In this document: positions 2,865-31,166 of the stretch, piece by piece | Layout of the letters: each line of letters begins with the position of its first letter | Position numbering within the stretch: the first letter of the stretch is position 1 | Virus record (IMG/VR): IMGVR_UViG_3300037467_002078 | Coordinates: 1 to 53,655 of that record | From: a virus | Lineage: Duplodnaviria > Caudoviricetes | DNA: 53,655 nt | Strand: one strand, 5' to 3' | Notes under the pieces: generated by a model | Seen by the model: the letters and a program-made list of their open reading frames with translations, nothing else | Told to the model about the DNA's origin: nothing | The model's database searches: none | Translations under genes and position numbers: made by a program

Positions 2865-2910
2865 TCCAATTCTCCTCAGCAAGGTTCCGATCAAATGTGA
2901 CCGTAAGAGA

Positions 2911-5171: not shown

Positions 5172-6103
5172 TTCTTCTCCTTGATCAGCATTTGGATGAG
5201 CGGATAATTGTCTTCAAGAGCACCTTGGAATCGCTTCCAAAATTGTGGGTGAGGGACTTGGCGCAAGTTAGTCAAGTTGAGACCAAGAAGTTCCTTGTGC
5301 GCTCTTCCTCCAAGGGCAAACACGGGGCGGCTGAAGTGGAAGTCTTTCAGAAACCACAAATCTTGATCTGAGTTGATCCAAAGAAGTTGATCTTCTCGAA
5401 TTCCAGCATTAATAAGCTGCTGCGTCAGCCACTGACTACATCCAGTATTTGAAAGCGAACCGAACGGCCACTGGTAAAACGCATCCTCGTCCTTCTGTTC
5501 GCCAAATCTGTCTCCCACCAGCACCAGCTTCGCCCTCCAATCGCCGGCTGAAGCGAGATGGAGTGGGTGCCGAGGCGCGCGGAATGCATCTAGCATGTCC
5601 TTATTAATCTTCCCACTGGACGTGTAATCAAACAGAATAGACGGGAGGTGGGTTTGATGTGGGCGCTTGTAAAAATCGTAGACAACACGGAGCTGGTCTT
5701 CATTGTCAAGCATCTCAAGATTCTTCCGAGAGAGGTAGTTGTTTCTGACAACCTCCCATGAAGGAAGGCATCTCACTACTACAGCCCCACACCTGAGGGC
5801 CAAGCGTTCCAGCACGCGAATCTGCCCCTCAGTTATGCGAAGCCGGTTGTTCCGGAAGGCGACGCCGTAGGGCTCCTCACTCAACCAGCAACGATCAAGC
5901 ACGACATCTTGGTACCCCAGAAGCGCAGGCAACATGGCTTCGACATACATCCGCCCCAGCCCCTTATCGACTCTTGGGAGCGCAGAGAAGTGGACGTAGC
6001 GCGCTCCAGTTTCCTTCGCGAACTCAGTGGCAGCGGTAGTTTTGCCGCCGCCATCCGGCCCTTCAAAGATTGTTATTTTTGCCGAGGTGACATTCGTCAT
6101 CAC
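5168..6103 (-). CDS. dNMP kinase fused to a uracil-DNA-glycosylase-like domain
   Basis: N-terminal IFEGPDGGGKTT P-loop and LDR motif; C-terminal LVLVGDRFG...WPF...WIN...FALGGRA...VPHPQ resembles UDG-superfamily motifs. Confidence 0.75.
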   Translation of the reverse strand: MMTNVTSAKITIFEGPDGGGKTTAATEFAKETGARYVHFSALPRVDKGLGRMYVEAMLPALLGYQDVVLDRCWLSEEPYGVAFRNNRLRITEGQIRVLERLALRCGAVVVRCLPSWEVVRNNYLSRKNLEMLDNEDQLRVVYDFYKRPHQTHLPSILFDYTSSGKINKDMLDAFRAPRHPLHLASAGDWRAKLVLVGDRFGEQKDEDAFYQWPFGSLSNTGCSQWLTQQLINAGIREDQLLWINSDQDLWFLKDFHFSRPVFALGGRAHKELLGLNLTNLRQVPHPQFWKRFQGALEDNYPLIQMLIKEKK

Positions 6104-6515: not shown

Positions 6516-7298
6516 TTATCTCTTCAGTTTGCGGCATACCCACAGATTGTTGCGAGCATAGTCTGGGTACAATGGGGCAAAGATGCAGCTGATGGCATCG
6601 TTGTCGTAATATTCGGAAAGCGCAGTCCTCAGCACTTTGATCGCCTCGTCCTGTTTGACCAGCTCAGGAGTAGAAAGCCCCGCCTGGCCACTGTTTGCTT
6701 TGCCGATGTGCTTGATGTCCATGAATGTACCGAACCGACGCTCGATCTTGAACCCAACCTTCTCTGTCGCCTTCTGAAGTTCCGGGACGGTATATTCGTG
6801 GATGTGATTGGCTGCGTGCCGCACTCCATCGTAGCATGGAGTGGACATCAGCATAGTGCCTCCTGGTTTGAGAAGGTCGAAGCAGCCCTTCAAAAGCTTT
6901 GCCCCATGTTCGACTTTCATGTGTTCAATGACTTCATAGTGGACAACAACGTCGAAGCCTTCTGGCCGAAGCTTCTTCAGTTCCTTCTGGCGTTCGACGA
7001 AGTTGAATTCCCCTAGGAAGGTTAGCCTCTGGCTATTGGACGGCTTCAGCTTGTTCATGTCTACACCAACGTAGGTATTGACATGGGCTGAAGCCCCGCC
7101 AGTCAGAATCTTGCTGAGGGGACGGTCCTCACCACATCCGATTTCCAGCACGTTATCTTTTGTGGTGATGAACCGTCTCGCAAAACTCCAACGCCAGAAA
7201 TGCGCGCTATAGTCCCGATGGAGGGACTTCCCATGTCCAGCTTCACGAAGCTGGGTTGTATCAAAATCCCGTCCATCACGGATTTTTTCTCGACGCAT
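6516..7298 (-). CDS. Class I SAM-dependent methyltransferase (small-molecule type)
   Basis: VLEIGCG motif I, YVGVD, FDVVVHYEVIEHM, LLKPGG, STP...HIHEY; no DNA-MTase DPPY/NPPY or PCQ-type motif IV. Confidence 0.88.
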   Translation of the reverse strand: MRREKIRDGRDFDTTQLREAGHGKSLHRDYSAHFWRWSFARRFITTKDNVLEIGCGEDRPLSKILTGGASAHVNTYVGVDMNKLKPSNSQRLTFLGEFNFVERQKELKKLRPEGFDVVVHYEVIEHMKVEHGAKLLKGCFDLLKPGGTMLMSTPCYDGVRHAANHIHEYTVPELQKATEKVGFKIERRFGTFMDIKHIGKANSGQAGLSTPELVKQDEAIKVLRTALSEYYDNDAISCIFAPLYPDYARNNLWVCRKLKR

Positions 7299-8460: not shown

Positions 8461-8507
8461 TTTTTGGTCTCCTCAGCAAGGTTGGTTAAATTTGGTACGT
8501 GAAATAG

Positions 8508-16123: not shown

Positions 16124-16157
16124 GTTATATCCCTCAGCGTTGTGAATAACAGAGTAC

Positions 16158-17316: not shown

Positions 17317-17370
17317 TTTAAATCCTCCTCAGCGAGATTTGATCGAGCAGGATTGCTCGACCGTGAGAAG

Positions 17371-17411
17371 ATTATAGCTCGAATCTAGCGGCTTGTAAAC
17401 AGGTATTTACA
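17371..17411 (-). promoter_or_regulatory. Sigma70-type promoter with palindromic -35 operator
   Basis: TTTACA-N17-TATAAT on minus strand (17399-17371); TGTAAA-caggta-TTTACA; followed by hairpin and GCTGAGGAGG RBS. Confidence 0.88.
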
Positions 17412-23217: not shown

Positions 23218-23499
23218 CTATTTCTTGCGTATCTTAATCTGGCAGATGCAAGTAGTCTTGATTACGCTAAAGCCCAGTGCAACGTCGATATACCCAGTTC
23301 CGTTGCATTTGCTACAGCCTGATGAAACAACCTCAGCAAGTTTCAACGCCTCCTCGAAGGCGACGGTCAATTCCTGGAATTGCTGGTCTGTGCCACCACG
23401 ATCCGGGTGGTGGATCATGCAAAGCTTCCGCCAGGCCTGCTTCACCTCAAGCTTCGTAGCCGACGGAGACAAGCCCAGCTTTTGGAAGCAATCGCTCAT
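23218..23499 (-). CDS. J-domain (DnaJ-like) protein with zinc-finger repeat
   Basis: LGL...VKQAWRKL...HHPDRGG J-domain; CSKCNGTG...CIC. Confidence 0.85.
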   Translation of the reverse strand: MSDCFQKLGLSPSATKLEVKQAWRKLCMIHHPDRGGTDQQFQELTVAFEEALKLAEVVSSGCSKCNGTGYIDVALGFSVIKTTCICQIKIRKK

Positions 23500-24242: not shown

Positions 24243-24334
24243 TTCTGTCTCCATTTTCTTAGTTGGTAAATTTGCCTTTCGGCCTTTCTCTCGTGCTTCG
24301 GGTCTCACCCTCAGCGGTTTTTGCAGCAGATTGA

Positions 24335-24363
24335 ATTCTATCTCGATCAGTACAAACCGTAAA
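24335..24363 (-). promoter_or_regulatory. Sigma70-type promoter
   Basis: TTTACG-N17-TAGAAT on minus strand. Confidence 0.7.
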
Positions 24364-24371
24364 CAACTAAT

Positions 24372-26468
24372 TTAATATTTTTTGTCTTTTTTTCCTCCTT
24401 TTTTCGCAACTTCTTCGAGATGCGCAACGATCGTCGCGACCTTCATCTCGCCTACCCATCGCTCAGGCCGGCGGATCGCGTAGAGACGAACCTGTGCCCC
24501 GGTCGGAAGGCGAATCGGCTTGCCCTGCAGCACCTGTGGAACACCGGCACGGCGCAGCTCGCGACCAAGCCCGTTGGCTGTGGTGCCTGTGCCGCCGGAT
24601 GGATCGTAAAGGCTAAGCAGCTCGGCTGACGTAAACAAGTCCTGCGTCAGGGCCATCTCGCCTACCTTAAGGTGGTGATCAGGCGACGTAACCAGCGAGC
24701 GAACCCATGATCCCAGGTCGGAACGAACGTCCGCAATCATCCGCTCCTTCGCGGCCGTCTTGAAAGCGTGCGCAGCCGGGTTGAACCCGTTCAGATCGTA
24801 GTTCAGGAGGTAGTGGAAGATGGCTGATGCCCCGCCCTCCGATAGCCAGTTGGTATAGTCAATATAGAACTGGTCGGGCAACGGGCCTACCGTAACCTCA
24901 TGGATAAAGTGCCGACGGTCGTCGTCTTCTAAGAAGAAGGCATCCGGCTGGTTCGAGGTAAAGAGATAGTTCATGCAGTCAGGCACTACGTAGGATGCCA
25001 CGTACTTGGGGTTTATCCTGAGTTCCTGCTGGGTAATCATCTTCTTCAGCAGGTCAGCGTCCTGGCGCTTGTTCGACCCAGTAACGTCGTCACCCAGCAC
25101 AAACTGCTTGCCCTCAGCCCATTCGTTGAACCCGCTATGGAGGTCGGCTTCCTTGATTTCTGTGAAGTTCTTCCCGTAGATGCGGCCCATGGTATACCCG
25201 ACCAGCGACTTCCCTGTTCCATGCCGGATGCCGTGAAGCGCGGCGGAGGTGAACATCTTGATCCCAGGCCGTTGGAGCGGACAGGCCAGCCAGCGAAGAA
25301 ACCAGACTTTGGCGTCCTCCTCGGCTCCTGTGAAGATGTGGTCAATGAGTTGGAGAAACGGCTTCACCGACCCCTTGACTGGTTGAACACCCCAGCCCGG
25401 CCAGATGTTGAACATCCTCCGTCCTTCCTCGCCATCCACGAACTTCTCCTGTCCCGGCTTGTAGGTCAACTTGCCGACCTGCATTCGCAGCGGCCACTTC
25501 AACCAGCTCAGCGCCGCGGACACAGGCTTAAATGTGATGGAACCGTCGTCCCTGAGAACCCGTTCCTGATAGGTCAACGGTGCCTCAAGGTGCGAGGTAA
25601 ACGAGGTCGGCGAGACTTTGAATCTTGTCTCTTGGTCGATTATCAACCCAGGGTCTTGGACGTAGACATACTTATCGTTGAGGTACCAGAGCGGGGCGGT
25701 CAGTCCTAGTGGTTCCGCCAAATGAAGCATTTCACCAAACATGTCGACTGCGGTCGGCCCGCCATGCACAAGGAAGTCGTCGAGACCCACCTTCTCCAGG
25801 CCAGGCAGCTGCGGCAGGTTGACTAAGTGGATGAACGAACCTCGCTGCTGAAGTTCCTCCGCCAGCTGCTTCAAGGCCACGCAGACGGCAGGGTTGGTGC
25901 GATAGTCTGAGTCGAAGCAGATATACACATTCCGCTTGATCCACTTGACTACGTCCAGGCTGGGAAGCCATGTGACGCCAAGCTTCCTTGCCCTCCAGTT
26001 ATGGACGCCGCCCAGGCCAATGGTGGGAAACCCTTCCTTGCAGGCCTTAGCCGCTTTGAGCTCTCCCTCTGTGATAACTAGCGGAACGGATGGGTTGGAG
26101 ACGTACTCAGCCCAGTTCGGATCGTTCGCAGGGAAGTAGGCGACGGGCGCCGTCCCGGGCTCCTGCACGTAGCGAACTGGTTTCTTAGTTGTCAGGGAAT
26201 CGAAACCCGTCGGGGTCTCGAGATAACGAAGTCGGTAGAACGGCTTGGCGCCCGGCCAGTCAGGCAGGGGCTTACCAAACGGATCGAGATAGTCGATCTT
26301 CAGGCTGCATAGCGCGTTGAAGGTCGAATGCAGGTCGGCGGTCTGATCGCCGTTAAGAAAACTGATTTTAAGCTTTTTTGCATCATCGGTCGTTAAACCA
26401 GAAGTCTTTAATTTCTCTTCGCCGAGTGCGGACGCAACTTGGCGGTTTGCAGTTGTTTTCTTAGCCAC
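24372..26468 (-). CDS. DNA primase-helicase (DUF3854 TOPRIM plus D5-like NTPase)
   Basis: ITEGELKA, IGLGGV, FDSD, GLDD TOPRIM motifs; GIRHGTGKS Walker A, GDD, TSN, DRR. Confidence 0.92.
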   Translation of the reverse strand: MAKKTTANRQVASALGEEKLKTSGLTTDDAKKLKISFLNGDQTADLHSTFNALCSLKIDYLDPFGKPLPDWPGAKPFYRLRYLETPTGFDSLTTKKPVRYVQEPGTAPVAYFPANDPNWAEYVSNPSVPLVITEGELKAAKACKEGFPTIGLGGVHNWRARKLGVTWLPSLDVVKWIKRNVYICFDSDYRTNPAVCVALKQLAEELQQRGSFIHLVNLPQLPGLEKVGLDDFLVHGGPTAVDMFGEMLHLAEPLGLTAPLWYLNDKYVYVQDPGLIIDQETRFKVSPTSFTSHLEAPLTYQERVLRDDGSITFKPVSAALSWLKWPLRMQVGKLTYKPGQEKFVDGEEGRRMFNIWPGWGVQPVKGSVKPFLQLIDHIFTGAEEDAKVWFLRWLACPLQRPGIKMFTSAALHGIRHGTGKSLVGYTMGRIYGKNFTEIKEADLHSGFNEWAEGKQFVLGDDVTGSNKRQDADLLKKMITQQELRINPKYVASYVVPDCMNYLFTSNQPDAFFLEDDDRRHFIHEVTVGPLPDQFYIDYTNWLSEGGASAIFHYLLNYDLNGFNPAAHAFKTAAKERMIADVRSDLGSWVRSLVTSPDHHLKVGEMALTQDLFTSAELLSLYDPSGGTGTTANGLGRELRRAGVPQVLQGKPIRLPTGAQVRLYAIRRPERWVGEMKVATIVAHLEEVAKKGGKKDKKY

Positions 26469-26559
26469 TTTGATTTTTCGGGTCCCTTAAACAGCATCGT
26501 CCTTTGTTCCTTGCCCTCAGCCGGTCAAGTTCTCATCTCTCAGCATAGATAAGGTAGGT

Positions 26560-26657
26560 GTCAGCCGAGCATGGGCACTTGCTGAGGGTGATGGACATGT
26601 GGAACCCGGGGCCGGGAGGTATTAGCCCTGAGGGGAGACACGCCGCGCTCGGCTGAC
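26560..26657 (-). ncRNA. Putative promoter-proximal structured RNA carrying anti-RBS sequence CCUCAGCAAG
   Basis: 11-bp closing stem 26560-26570/26647-26657 starting at the predicted TSS; contains the exact complement of the repeated CTTGCTGAGG RBS motif. Confidence 0.55.
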
Positions 26658-26664
26658 GACAGGG

Positions 26665-26693
26665 AATATAGCTTATGCAGGACTGTTTGTAAA
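26665..26693 (-). promoter_or_regulatory. Sigma70-type promoter (leftward member of divergent pair)
   Basis: TTTACA-N17-TATATT on minus strand. Confidence 0.8.
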
Positions 26694-26720
26694 TAGTTGG
26701 TGCTTATTTAAAAATAGCTA

Positions 26721-26749
26721 TTTACAAAGTGTGGTAACTGTGGTATGAT
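26721..26749 (+). promoter_or_regulatory. Sigma70-type promoter (rightward member of divergent pair)
   Basis: TTTACA-N17-TATGAT with extended -10 TG; followed by hairpin and CTTGCTGAGGAG RBS. Confidence 0.88.
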
Positions 26750-26794
26750 TCTTCTACGGTCAACTTCGACCGGAACCTTGCTGAGGAGAATGAA

Positions 26795-27049
26795 ATGGCG
26801 ACAAAACAAGTAAACATCATGGACCTTAAGGTAGGCGACATTGTACATTTTCATGGCGCGCGGTTCGAGATAACCAGCCGTAGGGAAGTGCAAGAAACCA
26901 GCCCCGAATTTGTCGAAAATGGAATAACCTCATACGTCACCTGCAACGGAAAGTGGCTGAGCGGGAACATCGAGCGCGGCTACTTCGGCCCCACGAAAGA
27001 CTGGAACTTCCAAGGCAACAAAAGAGTTAGTCACGCCGTCGAAATCTAA
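26795..27049 (+). CDS. Hypothetical early protein
   Basis: Strong promoter and RBS; DLKVGDIV start. Confidence 0.8.
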   Translation: MATKQVNIMDLKVGDIVHFHGARFEITSRREVQETSPEFVENGITSYVTCNGKWLSGNIERGYFGPTKDWNFQGNKRVSHAVEI

Positions 27050-27072
27050 ACCACAAGGGGCTTCGGCCCCTT
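27040..27072 (+). repeat. Intergenic linker repeat, copy 1 (stop codon plus UUCG hairpin)
   Basis: CGAAATCTAA(A)CCACAAGGGGCTTCGGCCCCTT, repeated at 27478-27509. Confidence 0.9.
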
Positions 27073-27088
27073 CCTTAGGGAGAATGAA

Positions 27089-27487
27089 ATGCAAAAACCT
27101 GAAATTGGACAAGAAGTCGTGGTCTGCAAATCTGGTAATTTCGAAACTCACTACTACTTTGGGTACGTTGTAACAAAGATTTCACCGAAGGGCAACATCA
27201 CTATTGCTCAGAAAGACAACCCTGAGCACACCCGAATATTTAACGTGCGAGGTGAAGAACGCAGCACGATCTACTCGAAGTACGACCGCCCGTGGATCGA
27301 ACTCGATGTGCAAAGAATCCGCGAGGTTATTGCCCAGCGCCGGCGGACGACAGACGCCATCGCAGCAGTTTCAAAAATAAGGGCCGACGATATCTCGAGA
27401 AGATGGAATAAAGAACATCTGCAAGAGGAAATCGCCAGGCTCGAGCAACTGCTTGACGAAGCCAAGAAGAAGGTCGACGAAATCTAA
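27089..27487 (+). CDS. Hypothetical early protein
   Basis: GGGAG RBS, bounded by the linker repeats. Confidence 0.8.
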   Translation: MQKPEIGQEVVVCKSGNFETHYYFGYVVTKISPKGNITIAQKDNPEHTRIFNVRGEERSTIYSKYDRPWIELDVQRIREVIAQRRRTTDAIAAVSKIRADDISRRWNKEHLQEEIARLEQLLDEAKKKVDEI

Positions 27488-27509
27488 CCACAAGGGGCTT
27501 CGGCCCCTT
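27478..27509 (+). repeat. Intergenic linker repeat, copy 2
   Basis: Identical to 27040-27072 apart from one A. Confidence 0.9.
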
Positions 27510-27531
27510 AACCTTGCTGAGGAGAATAAAA

Positions 27532-27699
27532 ATGACCATTCAAGACTGCCTGGCCCTGCTGGCCGCTGCCACATCGATTGAACAAGAGGAAGAAGCTTTC
27601 GCCTTAGCGCAGGAAGCCCTCTCGATCGAGGATTACTCCACGTTCACGGCCGTCGCCCCGGAAAGCAAATTCCTCGACGACCCTGAATTTAACCGCTAG
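27532..27699 (+). CDS. Small acidic early protein
   Basis: CTTGCTGAGGAG RBS before ATG 27532. Confidence 0.75.
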   Translation: MTIQDCLALLAAATSIEQEEEAFALAQEALSIEDYSTFTAVAPESKFLDDPEFNR

Positions 27700-29868: not shown

Positions 29869-31166
29869 GCCAAGTTAACGGGCCACGTCCTGAGCTCAAC
29901 GTACCGCAGGCAGAGTTCCTCCTCCTTCCCCACAAATACAAAGGTTTCGTAGCCGGTTTCGGCTCGGGCAAGACATGGGTCGGTTGTGCCGCCCAGTGCA
30001 AGCATTCGTGGGAATGGCCAGGCGTGAATGCCGGGTACTTTGCTCCAACGTTTGGCCACATTCGAGACATCTTCTACCCAACCATGGAGGAAGTTGCTTT
30101 CGACTGGGGGCTAAAGACGAAGGTTCACTTCGCCAATAAGGAAGTGGACATCTACTCAGGCAAGACTTACCGGAACACGATCATTTGCCGGTCGCTCGAA
30201 GACCCGGAGAAGATTGTTGGTTTCAAGATTGGTCACGCACAGGTTGACGAGCTTGATCTCCTCAAGAAGGAGAAAGCCGCCATCGCCTGGCGAAAGATCA
30301 TTGCTCGGATGCGTGAGAATCGCCCGGGTCTGCGTAATGGCATCGATGTTACCACGACGCCTGAAGGATTCAAGTTCGTCTACGAGCAGTTTGTCTCGCA
30401 GGTTCGTGAGAAACCTGACCTTAAGGTACTTTACGGTCTGGTGCAAGCGAGCACGCATGACAACGCGAAGAATTTACCGGCGGATTACATTCCGTCGCTT
30501 CGCGCAAGTTACCCGCCACAGCTGATCGATGCTTACTTGAAAGGCCAGTTTACGAATCTGGCTAGCGGCTCAGTCTACGTCAACTTCGACAGAAAACTGA
30601 ACCATACAAGCGCAACGATCGCTGAGCGTGAGCCATTACACATCGGCATGGACTTTAACGTTTTGAACATGACCGCCACGGTCAACGTGATACGAAACGA
30701 TCTACCCATGCAACTCGATGAACTGGTCAAAGTCAGGGATACTCCAGCCATGGGCCGAATGATCAAGGAACGGTATGTCGACAAAGGACATCACGTGACG
30801 ATCTATCCTGACGCCAGCGGACAGAACACAAGCAGCAAGAATGCCAGTGAGTCAGACTTCAGCATTCTTCGCCAGTATCAACTCAAGATCGACGTAGCTT
30901 CCGTCAATCCAACGGTACGGGACAGGGTGAACGCGTTCAACGCCCTCATCCTCAACGACGTCGGAGAGCGGAAGTTCCTGATCAACACGAACAGGTGCCC
31001 AGTCACGACCGAGGCGCTTGAGCAGCAGGCGTGGGACAAAGATGGTGAACCAGACAAGAAGACTGGCCATGACCACCCTGTCGACGCAGAGGGATATTTC
31101 TTGGTGCGCAAGTTCCCGATTGTACGGACAAGCGCCAGACGAGTTCAGGTTGGAGGCGGGTTGTGA
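29865..31166 (+). CDS. terL: Terminase large subunit
   Basis: AGFGSGKT Walker A, QVDE Walker B, TTTP, GMDFN and DHPVDA nuclease motifs. Confidence 0.96.
   Translation: MSQVNGPRPELNVPQAEFLLLPHKYKGFVAGFGSGKTWVGCAAQCKHSWEWPGVNAGYFAPTFGHIRDIFYPTMEEVAFDWGLKTKVHFANKEVDIYSGKTYRNTIICRSLEDPEKIVGFKIGHAQVDELDLLKKEKAAIAWRKIIARMRENRPGLRNGIDVTTTPEGFKFVYEQFVSQVREKPDLKVLYGLVQASTHDNAKNLPADYIPSLRASYPPQLIDAYLKGQFTNLASGSVYVNFDRKLNHTSATIAEREPLHIGMDFNVLNMTATVNVIRNDLPMQLDELVKVRDTPAMGRMIKERYVDKGHHVTIYPDASGQNTSSKNASESDFSILRQYQLKIDVASVNPTVRDRVNAFNALILNDVGERKFLINTNRCPVTTEALEQQAWDKDGEPDKKTGHDHPVDAEGYFLVRKFPIVRTSARRVQVGGGL

Follow-up and report, generated by a model that had tools for sequence, protein, structure and literature searches.

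The DNA analysed here, referred to as the window, is a whole virus record from IMG/VR (IMGVR_UViG_3300037467_002078; Caudoviricetes), 53,655 bp long, complete and with direct terminal repeats present. The element in question lies just upstream of the primase-helicase gene, the first gene of a leftward replication operon, in the segment that would form the leader of the operon transcript. There, a predicted RNA with three stems (P1, P2 and P3) is followed by two small hairpins, called B and C. The primase-helicase starts with a GTG codon 189 nt past the predicted transcript start, and the proteins of relatives align with it from residue 2-3. It is 56% identical to the proteins of Stenotrophomonas phage AXL3 and Pseudoxanthomonas phage PW916, in both of which the orthologous gene carries a primase annotation, 51% identical to that of the uncultured siphovirus MW202621, and ~67% identical to those on many IMG/VR contigs of ~38 kb. 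A near-identity search of GenBank phages with positions 25800-27600 of the window gave no match. The features of the locus are as follows.

24372..26468, minus strand: primase-helicase gene, 698 aa, with Pfam domains DUF3854 and DUF5906.
26510..26529, minus strand: leader hairpin C, a predicted fold with stem CUUG/CAAG whose loop shows ACCGGCUGAGGG.
26532..26553, minus strand: leader hairpin B, a predicted fold with stem CUUAUCU/AGAUGAG whose loop shows AUGCUGAG.
26557..26559, minus strand: ACC, directly 3′ of P1, then a pyrimidine-rich single-stranded stretch.
26560..26657, minus strand: Y-shaped RNA core of 98 nt, from folding, covariation and a covariance-model match (52.6 bits, E 3.5e-12).
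26576..26590, minus strand: P3 hairpin, CAC, loop CCUCAGCAA (26587->26579) and GUG; the putative antisense loop, directed against ribosome-binding sites (RBSs).
26665..26693, minus strand: sigma-70-like promoter, consensus scan, 10/12 matches.
26721-26749, plus strand: divergent promoter TTTACA-17-TATGAT, consensus scan.

An initial annotation, made from the sequence alone, had proposed that the promoter at 26665-26693 would start an RNA of ~98 nt at the base of an 11-bp stem, and that this RNA would be antisense to an RBS shared by many early genes. The observation itself was confirmed and the interpretation was partly supported. The enclosed RNA measures 98 nt and its closing stem 12 bp, P1 being formed by GUCAGCCGAGCG (26657->26646) and UGCUCGGCUGAC (26571->26560). 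Folding of the minus strand gave -41.5 kcal/mol with z = -3.87, and the plus strand gave z = -2.18. The motif that had been placed in a small CAC/GUG-closed loop is found there, as CCUCAGCAAG at 26587->26578 with CAC and GUG on its flanks, and the nine bases of the P3 loop had a mean unpaired probability of 0.81 in the partition function, compared with 0.42 for the whole RNA. The 3-bp CAC/GUG stem is not drawn in the window's own minimum-free-energy structure; the relatives support it. P2 is a variable arm and holds the second CCCCUCAG (26628-26635) to which the initial annotation had pointed. This copy is partly paired and is not conserved, being absent from relatives.

The placement of the promoter also agreed with the proposal. 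Its -35 element TTTACA (26693->26688) and its -10 element TATATT (26670->26665) are separated by a 17-nt spacer, and the -10 element ends 7 nt ahead of the first P1 base. Among 67 distinct relatives, a TAnnnT hexamer ended 5-9 nt before P1 in 60 (exactly 7 nt in 42), and 49 of these -10-bearing sequences also had a -35-like element. The first P1 base was G in 60 of 67 distinct sequences. In L006, L011, L012, L020 and L033 a small gene lies between the element and the primase, and the element stays beside the promoter. Since P1 begins at the predicted +1, processing of the 5′ end may be unnecessary. This arrangement suggests that the RNA is encoded in the leader of the very operon that it would control, and that it would be co-transcribed with hairpins B and C and the primase.

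At the other end of P1, the three bases after the stem are ACC in 49 and NCC in 60 of the 67 distinct sequences. The NCC tail resembles the discriminator-CC end of a tRNA acceptor stem and may, speculatively, bear on 3′-end processing or on recognition by tRNA-maturation enzymes. The element as a tRNA or tRNA-like structure was considered and rejected: ARAGORN found 0 tRNA genes over the window, and the length of P1 is 12-19 bp where a tRNA would have 7. Separately, an 11-bp perfect inverted repeat, TTTGTAAATAG (26686-26696) and CTATTTACAAA (26718-26728), whose arms are 21 nt apart, spans the -35 hexamers of both divergent promoters. The repeat might serve as the operator through which a single regulator acts on both early promoters, or it may reflect mere promoter symmetry; the sole Rfam match over 26686-26728 was a chance miRNA-like hairpin.

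Conservation of the element was extensive. CCTCAGCAA was found upstream of the primase in 32 of the 35 primase relatives first examined, and around it nearly everything varied except the ability to pair. When single-sequence folds were combined with stem measurement from the ends, without alignment, one architecture was recovered in 27 of 27 distinct cores, with a P1 of 8-19 bp in every one. A covariance model (R1) was built from these 27 cores, with AXL3, PW916, MW202621 and L035 not in the model. R1 matched the window and 31 of 34 sources, among them all four sequences outside the model; in AXL3 the element lies upstream of gene 64, the primase. In addition, R1 matched 60 of another 77 IMG/VR loci, in every case just upstream of the primase and on the same strand as that gene, as well as L121 and L122, two relatives of MW202621. 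The IMG/VR matches spanned primase identities from 69% down to 51%. Five of 18 loci from a prokaryote genome collection were also matched, and among these 18 there was no R1 match where primase identity was 47% or lower. The P3 loop was CCUCAGCAA in 47 of 51 distinct matches.

In the model-guided alignment A3, 92.9% of cells were paired and both sides had changed in 27 of 31 pairs; 0 of 500 shuffles reached the observed value, and in slid controls 28-43% of cells were paired. RNAalifold on A3 independently predicted P1 (13 bp) and P3 (5 bp), left the loop open, and gave compensatory changes in 17 of 20 pairs, and the P3 stem covaried in 5 of 5 pairs. On the primase strand, G-U pairs outnumbered A-C pairs in the stems by 139 to 40, P3 included, with an aligner that somewhat favours G-U; this excess suggests that selection for the structure acted on the primase-sense strand and not on its complement. 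No Rfam family reached the gathering score in the window or in the loci of eight relatives. At E values up to 10, a search of 26400-26760 returned six unrelated chance matches, none of them to the C4 family, which we take to be RF01695. On these comparisons we judge the element to be a structured RNA that is conserved and belongs to the primase strand.

The most widely conserved complement of the P3 loop lies a short distance downstream on the same predicted transcript. The loop of hairpin B holds GCUGAG (26544->26539), which together with the preceding U gives 7 nt complementary to the P3 loop. The loop of hairpin C holds GCUGAGGG (26521->26514), with 8 nt complementary to CCCUCAGC of P3. The initial annotation had proposed a coupling of the RNA to primase expression and had listed a cis copy in the leader; this copy is the site in hairpin C, the only one of the two leader sites that had been seen. 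Counting GCUG[AG]G sites no more than 110 nt from the RNA gave exactly two in 54 of 62 distinct leaders and at least one in 60 of 62, against a chance expectation of ~0.05 per leader by our own arithmetic. Of 54 leaders, 51 had site 1 flanked by a stem of at least 5 bp and 44 had site 2 so flanked, and the arms of these stems came in 39 and 32 distinct pairs, respectively; as a control, 18% of random coding positions also reached a flanking stem of at least 5 bp. The feature common to site B, site C and the RBS copies described below is that all are complementary to CUCAGC of the P3 loop. As site B (GCUGAG-C) does not form a Shine-Dalgarno sequence, its conservation fits pairing with CUCAGC.

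A more distant relative, L108 (53% primase identity), had been missed by the covariance model. It has the same promoter-P1-P2-P3 layout, with the RNA at 5478-5589, and its loop is CCUCGGCAG. Its two downstream sites are CUGCCGA and CUGCCGAGG, so that a change at one position of the loop is accompanied by changes at the corresponding position of the two sites. L108 appears to be the decisive case for covariation between loop and cis sites; no close relatives of it were found in IMG/VR. A scan of the loci missed by the model for complementary triads gave this one clear case. A possible second case was L116, where CGGCAC occurs with two GUGCCG sites and the structure is a candidate only, and the false leads included a plain long hairpin in L034. 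By these criteria of recurrence, the most widely conserved partners of the P3 loop are predicted to be the two leader hairpin loops, and they are also the only putative partners with a clean compensatory change.

In some leaders, hairpin C is close to a start codon. An ATG followed the hairpin C GAGG by 2-9 nt in 27 of 59 leaders, mostly of one clade and not in the window. In the clade of L004-L031 (for example L024, 2855-2943), an AUG 5-6 nt after the GAGG opens a short frame overlapping the primase start, and in L006, L011 and L018 it is a bare AUG-UAA start-stop. A leader peptide, with hairpin C as the RBS of a small upstream open reading frame, was rejected as a general mechanism, with such an arrangement in 27 of 59 leaders only and absent in the window and in most distant relatives.

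The complement of the P3 loop also occurs elsewhere in the window. Seven copies of CTTGCTGAGG were found where 0.17 were expected, and 0 of 100 shuffles reached seven. Four of these (2874, 8471, 26777 and 27513) are RBSs, each 8-10 nt before a start codon and exactly where the initial annotation had put them; another of the seven is the antisense copy in the P3 region itself (26578-26587). The remaining copies and the related RBS cores are as follows.

26777..26786, plus strand: RBS CUUGCUGAGG of gene 26795-27049 (84 aa), the first gene of the rightward early operon.
27513..27522, plus strand: RBS CUUGCUGAGG of gene 27532-27699 (55 aa), after a GGGGC/GCCCC hairpin.
8471..8480, minus strand: RBS CUUGCUGAGG of gene 8460->7954 (168 aa), after a TACAAT -10-like hexamer.
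2874..2883, minus strand: RBS CUUGCUGAGG of gene 2864->2643 (73 aa), in a cassette 81% identical to 26712-26791.
17327..17333, minus strand: RBS core GCUGAGG of gene 17316->16339 (325 aa, phrog_1221), downstream of both a TATAAT -10 and a 5′ hairpin.
16132..16138, minus strand: RBS core GCUGAGG of gene 16123->15437 (228 aa, phrog_421), after TTTACA...TATAAT.
23331..23340, minus strand: full CUUGCUGAGG copy, sense-oriented; the next 40 nt hold no start codon.
7110..7119, plus strand: full copy antisense to the minus-strand gene 6516-7298, whose mRNA carries the loop sequence and not the target.

All sites of the initial inventory were present, including GCUGAGG at 16132, 17327, 24309 and 26515 and the copy at 7110-7119 within the methyltransferase gene; missing from it were the full copy at 23331-23340 and the cis GCUGAG at 26544->26539. 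The copy at 7110-7119 is probably incidental. The one at 23331-23340 is apparently inside a coding region, where no open reading frame of at least 100 aa is listed, and is possibly an extra target or a chance occurrence. Five of the six RBS sites follow -10-like hexamers, which marks the genes behind them as first genes of early transcription units. The RBS at 26777-26786, for example, lies downstream of the divergent promoter and of a 5′ hairpin CGGUC/GACCG.

GCUGAGG RBSs recur in the relatives, where they precede at least six different genes. In relatives with the standard loop, UU preceded GCUGAGG in 47 of 159 distinct RBS-like sites, compared with 14 of 252 other sites. At one orthologous gene with 14 distinct leaders, 11 of them retained CUUGCUGAGG whereas the distance to the AUG was free to vary, and the 5′ extension CUUGCU was conserved in those leaders despite the varying spacer. 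In MW202621, three of the window's proposed target genes have homologues that retain GCUGAGG at the RBS, among them the homologue of gene 8460->7954. The RBSs of AXL3 at 29938 and 42820 have 12-13 nt complementary to that phage's own P3 region, and six GCTGAGGAG copies lie outside its leader, all on the gene-sense strand.

The form of the RBS also followed the form of the loop in one comparison. Counts of NTGCTGAGG, which include the RNA gene itself once per genome, were seven with T and none with C in the window (loop ...CAA), and six with C and none with T in MW202621 (loop ...CAG), so that the RBS form is UUGCUGAGG in the former and CUGCUGAGG in the latter. Loop positions 8-9, which are unpaired with the cis sites, are fixed where UUGCUGAGG RBSs exist and variable where they do not. 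This behaviour of positions 8-9 is what trans pairing would predict, with small numbers. In our assessment the RBS targets would be real but clade-specific. The regulon postulated in the initial annotation thus stands in part: the complement does form early-gene RBSs here and in relatives, but these are specific to clades and the widest partners are the leader hairpins.

Some of these RBSs are embedded in a recurrent promoter-leader cassette. Copies lie at 26712-26791 and 2869-2948 (81% identical) and also at 17330-17390, and their order is a -10 hexamer, a 5′-terminal hairpin (A)CGGUC...GACCG at about +1, AAC(C)UUGCUGAGGAG and the start codon. The 5′ hairpin, which AXL3 and MW202621 share with the window, might stabilise the 5′ end of the mRNA. 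Another GCUGAGG copy occurs with a sigma-70-like promoter, TTTACG...TAGAAT followed by ACCGCUGAGG, at 24309-24340 on the minus strand, just past the primase stop. This site has no start codon at RBS distance, and a GTG stands directly after it.

Taken as a whole, the element has the appearance of a previously unrecorded RNA that would regulate the phage's replication and its early genes. The reading that we favour, with a probability of about 0.6, is that of a leader-encoded antisense RNA of the P4 CI or P1 C4 kind, acting on the replication operon and, in this clade, on the RBSs of early operons. It is built on observed structure, conservation, promoter placement, complementarity and the joint change of loop and cis sites in L108; from these we infer transcription, loop pairing, repression as the direction of control, action in trans and processing. 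In this scheme the first ~100 nt of the primase-operon transcript would fold as a Y-shaped regulatory RNA comprising P1, P2 and P3. The P3 loop would kiss two hairpin loops 20-70 nt downstream, one with GCUGAG and the other with GCUGAGG(G), either in its own molecule or, from a leader or processed RNA made earlier, in nascent leaders. Such loop-loop pairing would set the expression level of the replication operon, the primase first. In this clade the loop is complementary to 9-10 nt, (C)UUGCUGAGG, overlapping the Shine-Dalgarno sequence of the first genes of other early operons, and the RNA would probably lower translation of these sigma-70-driven first genes in trans. The most far-reaching form of the proposal is a phage-specific anti-Shine-Dalgarno in a widespread set of siphoviruses that lack an integrase, in which one 9-nt loop both autoregulates the replication operon and shuts off early operons in trans; we advance it tentatively, at somewhat less than even odds.

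Several points weigh against the favoured reading. The cis sites do not overlap the Shine-Dalgarno sequence of the primase and lie 40-130 nt upstream of its start. A discrete small RNA would need processing, as no terminator follows P1: a consensus scan of 26300-26900 found no terminator-like site. None of the public RNA-sequencing runs is listed as holding the window sequence. Because A3 was guided by the model, its covariation counts lean towards the model's structure, and with the raw MAFFT alignment A2 as input RNAalifold returned 0 pairs, several rows of A2 having been shifted out of register. The case for trans targets is affected in other ways. The four RBS copies sit within a longer shared block, AACCUUGCUGAGGAGA, which exceeds the part able to pair with P3, and the copies travel in the repeated cassette, whose whole leader is conserved. 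The initial annotation had looked to covariation of loop and RBS across relatives; the T/C match between the window and MW202621 is of this kind, but the loop is invariant in most relatives, and the covariation amounts to one base in few clades. In L121 the loop ends in ...CAG and the RBS is UUGCUGAGG, so that they pair only through G-U. Four distant relatives with loop variants at positions 8-9 (L093, L105, L106 and L118; CCA, CAC or CAG) have 0-1 RBS-like GCUGAGG each in 14-22 kb, which indicates that the regulon is not universal. Finally, whole-RNA duplex energies at the proposed targets were -21.8 to -29.3 kcal/mol, and over 147 open reading frame starts the background had a median of -25.6 and a best value of -41.4, so the proposed targets were not singled out; the method ignores the RNA's own fold, and we count the result as uninformative.

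The main rival is a purely cis-acting leader, in which P3 kisses hairpin B or C intramolecularly and thereby shapes the stability, folding or translation of the primase mRNA, and the RBS copies are a preferred start region spread by the duplicated promoter-leader cassette and unregulated by the RNA. It accounts for the universal features, the cis sites being the widest partners and the sole ones with a clean compensatory change, and for the distant relatives that keep the RNA and the cis sites with few or no matching RBSs. The lack of a terminator downstream of P1 and the position of the RBS copies within a repeated cassette also fit it. What it leaves aside is the perfect complementarity of 9-13 nt at four window RBSs and at many in relatives, and the conservation of the CUUGCU extension while the spacer varies. 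Nor does it account for loop positions 8-9, which have no cis partner and are invariant in clades with UUGCUGAGG RBSs, and which differ in clades that lack such RBSs or use CUGCUGAGG. We regard a leader acting in cis only as unlikely, with a real though minor share of the probability.

The two other explanations take GCUGAGG to be a recognition site for a protein, and both are considerably less probable. In one of them, a translational repressor encoded by the phage, comparable to T4 RegA or a coat protein, would bind GCUGAGG in RNA loops and RBSs as its operator, and the P3 loop would do no more than modulate access to it. Hairpin-displayed operators are typical of RNA-binding repressors, and the shared block AACCUUGCUGAGGAGA extends beyond the part that P3 could pair with. 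An operator of this kind gives no reason for the invariant complementary loop or for the joint change in L108, and no conserved candidate protein lies beside the element. One weak candidate, the gene at 27089-27487 (plus strand, 132 aa, in the rightward early operon), had been tried as an RNA chaperone partner and was rejected: its Phage_ProQ_C_like match had E 0.0011 and 20.1 bits against a cut-off of 27, and a homologue was present in none of the relatives' loci examined. A protein operator is, in our view, quite improbable. Slightly less credit still is given to an element acting at the DNA level, a replication origin or single-strand initiation site at which the adjacent primase-helicase would recognise GCTGAGG displayed on hairpins, two of them on one strand and the third on its complement. 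Plasmid primases recognise hairpin signals on opposite strands, three copies of the motif adjoin the primase gene, and the P3 hairpin read on the opposite strand shows TTGCTGAGG in its loop. An origin would not, however, call for P1 to start at the predicted transcript start, as it does in 60 of 67 sequences, or for a three-way junction with a closing stem of 12-19 bp. The 139-to-40 excess of G-U over A-C on the transcribed strand, and the occurrence of the motif at RBS spacing before many genes, also speak against it, and we consider it very improbable.

The wider set of primase relatives provides context for the carriers of the element. No Phage_integrase or Resolvase domain was matched in the complete 53.6-kb record, and AXL3 is described as virulent and without lysogeny genes (PMC7504290). 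A term search of that paper turned up none of promoter, ribosome and terminator. YuA-like phages (MP1412 and others) have primase-helicases distantly related to the one here, at 26% identity. In the prokaryote genome collection, full-length primase relatives were mostly on contigs of 34-59 kb. Six contigs of 9.6-49 kb from that collection (L132-L137) carry this primase, five of them (all but L135) also with the RNA, and were binned with metagenome-assembled genomes of unrelated phyla, for example Lentisphaera, Chromatiales, Flavobacterium, Saccharibacteria and Nitrospira. Most probably these are stray phage contigs caught up in the binning, and hence uninformative on the host. Near the primase genes of distant relatives that lack the RNA (L140-L148), dense short direct and inverted repeats of iteron-like appearance were observed (for example L142 6137-6320, L143 3375-3615 and L146 5990-6180). 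These arrays may be origins.

The element is thus a covariation-supported RNA without an Rfam match, for which a candidate mechanism and explicit predicted targets in cis and in trans can be named, and its presence in two cultured phages, AXL3 and PW916, makes the hypothesis directly testable. If the favoured reading is true, the leader-encoded antisense logic of temperate P4 and P1 would also run the replication and early-gene programme of lytic siphoviruses, and the loop and RBS would form a compact programmable pair for engineering gene control in phages. If the anti-Shine-Dalgarno proposal is true, the RNA would be a counterpart of T4 RegA and RegB, and a P4/P1-type immunity circuit would serve as a lytic-cycle timer.

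The likeness to P1 C4 and P4 CI that the initial annotation had drawn holds at the level of anatomy, that of a leader-encoded RNA with complementary sites on the same transcript. In the satellite phage P4, the immunity factor CI RNA derives by processing from an untranslated leader and shuts off replication genes through pairing with two sequences complementary to it (PMC4825925). The present element likewise lies in the leader of a replication-gene operon that includes a primase-helicase, with two short complementary sites on the same transcript, as in P4 (PMC4825925). In P4, however, one site is upstream and one downstream, whereas here both are downstream and in hairpin loops. CI is cut from a longer precursor, whereas the RNA here would begin at the transcript start. 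P4 CI provides lysogenic immunity through premature termination, whereas no integrase was found here and the relative AXL3 is reported to be virulent.

C4 of the P1/P7 immI operon is a stem-closed RNA of ~77 nt co-transcribed with its targets (Citron & Schuster 1992, as cited in PMC8546580). In the way proposed for the present element, loops of C4 pair with downstream sites on the same transcript, and C4 blocks expression of the genes that follow. The C4 target overlaps the RBS of icd, a small open reading frame whose translation the downstream gene depends on. RNAs of the CI/C4 type are released by processing as discrete species of ~70-80 nt, and RNase P generates the 5′ end of C4. The gene that C4 represses encodes an antirepressor of a temperate phage, in contrast to the replication operon and the RBSs of other operons considered here, and the element had no match to the Rfam C4/CI model. 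In T4, the endoribonuclease RegB and the translational repressor RegA shut off early genes as a group via a short RBS sequence, so the proposed outcome is similar, but the agents are proteins there and would be an RNA loop here. In plasmid copy-number control, CopA/CopT and RNA I/RNA II likewise make kissing contacts between hairpin loops of 6-7 nt, in a replication-gene leader. Unlike CopA, RNA I and lambda OOP, which are antisense RNAs from the opposite strand, the RNA here is on the same strand as its putative targets and upstream of them.

RNA regulators of virulent phages are only starting to be catalogued, and almost none has a known target (Putzeys et al. 2024, PMC10914365). That study reports candidate noncoding RNAs derived from 5′ untranslated regions in virulent Pseudomonas phages, one of them upstream of the PAK_P3 primase/helicase and three in YuA. 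It proposes no function or target for these candidates, in contrast to the present element, and the likeness drawn here is one of position. Searches of the literature on AXL3, on phage anti-Shine-Dalgarno small RNAs and early genes, and on transcriptomes and small RNAs of Mesyanzhinovviridae yielded no description of the element. What would be new relative to P4 and P1 is that the carriers lack an integrase (and AXL3 is reported as virulent), that both cis sites are downstream in hairpin loops, and that the transcript starts at P1.

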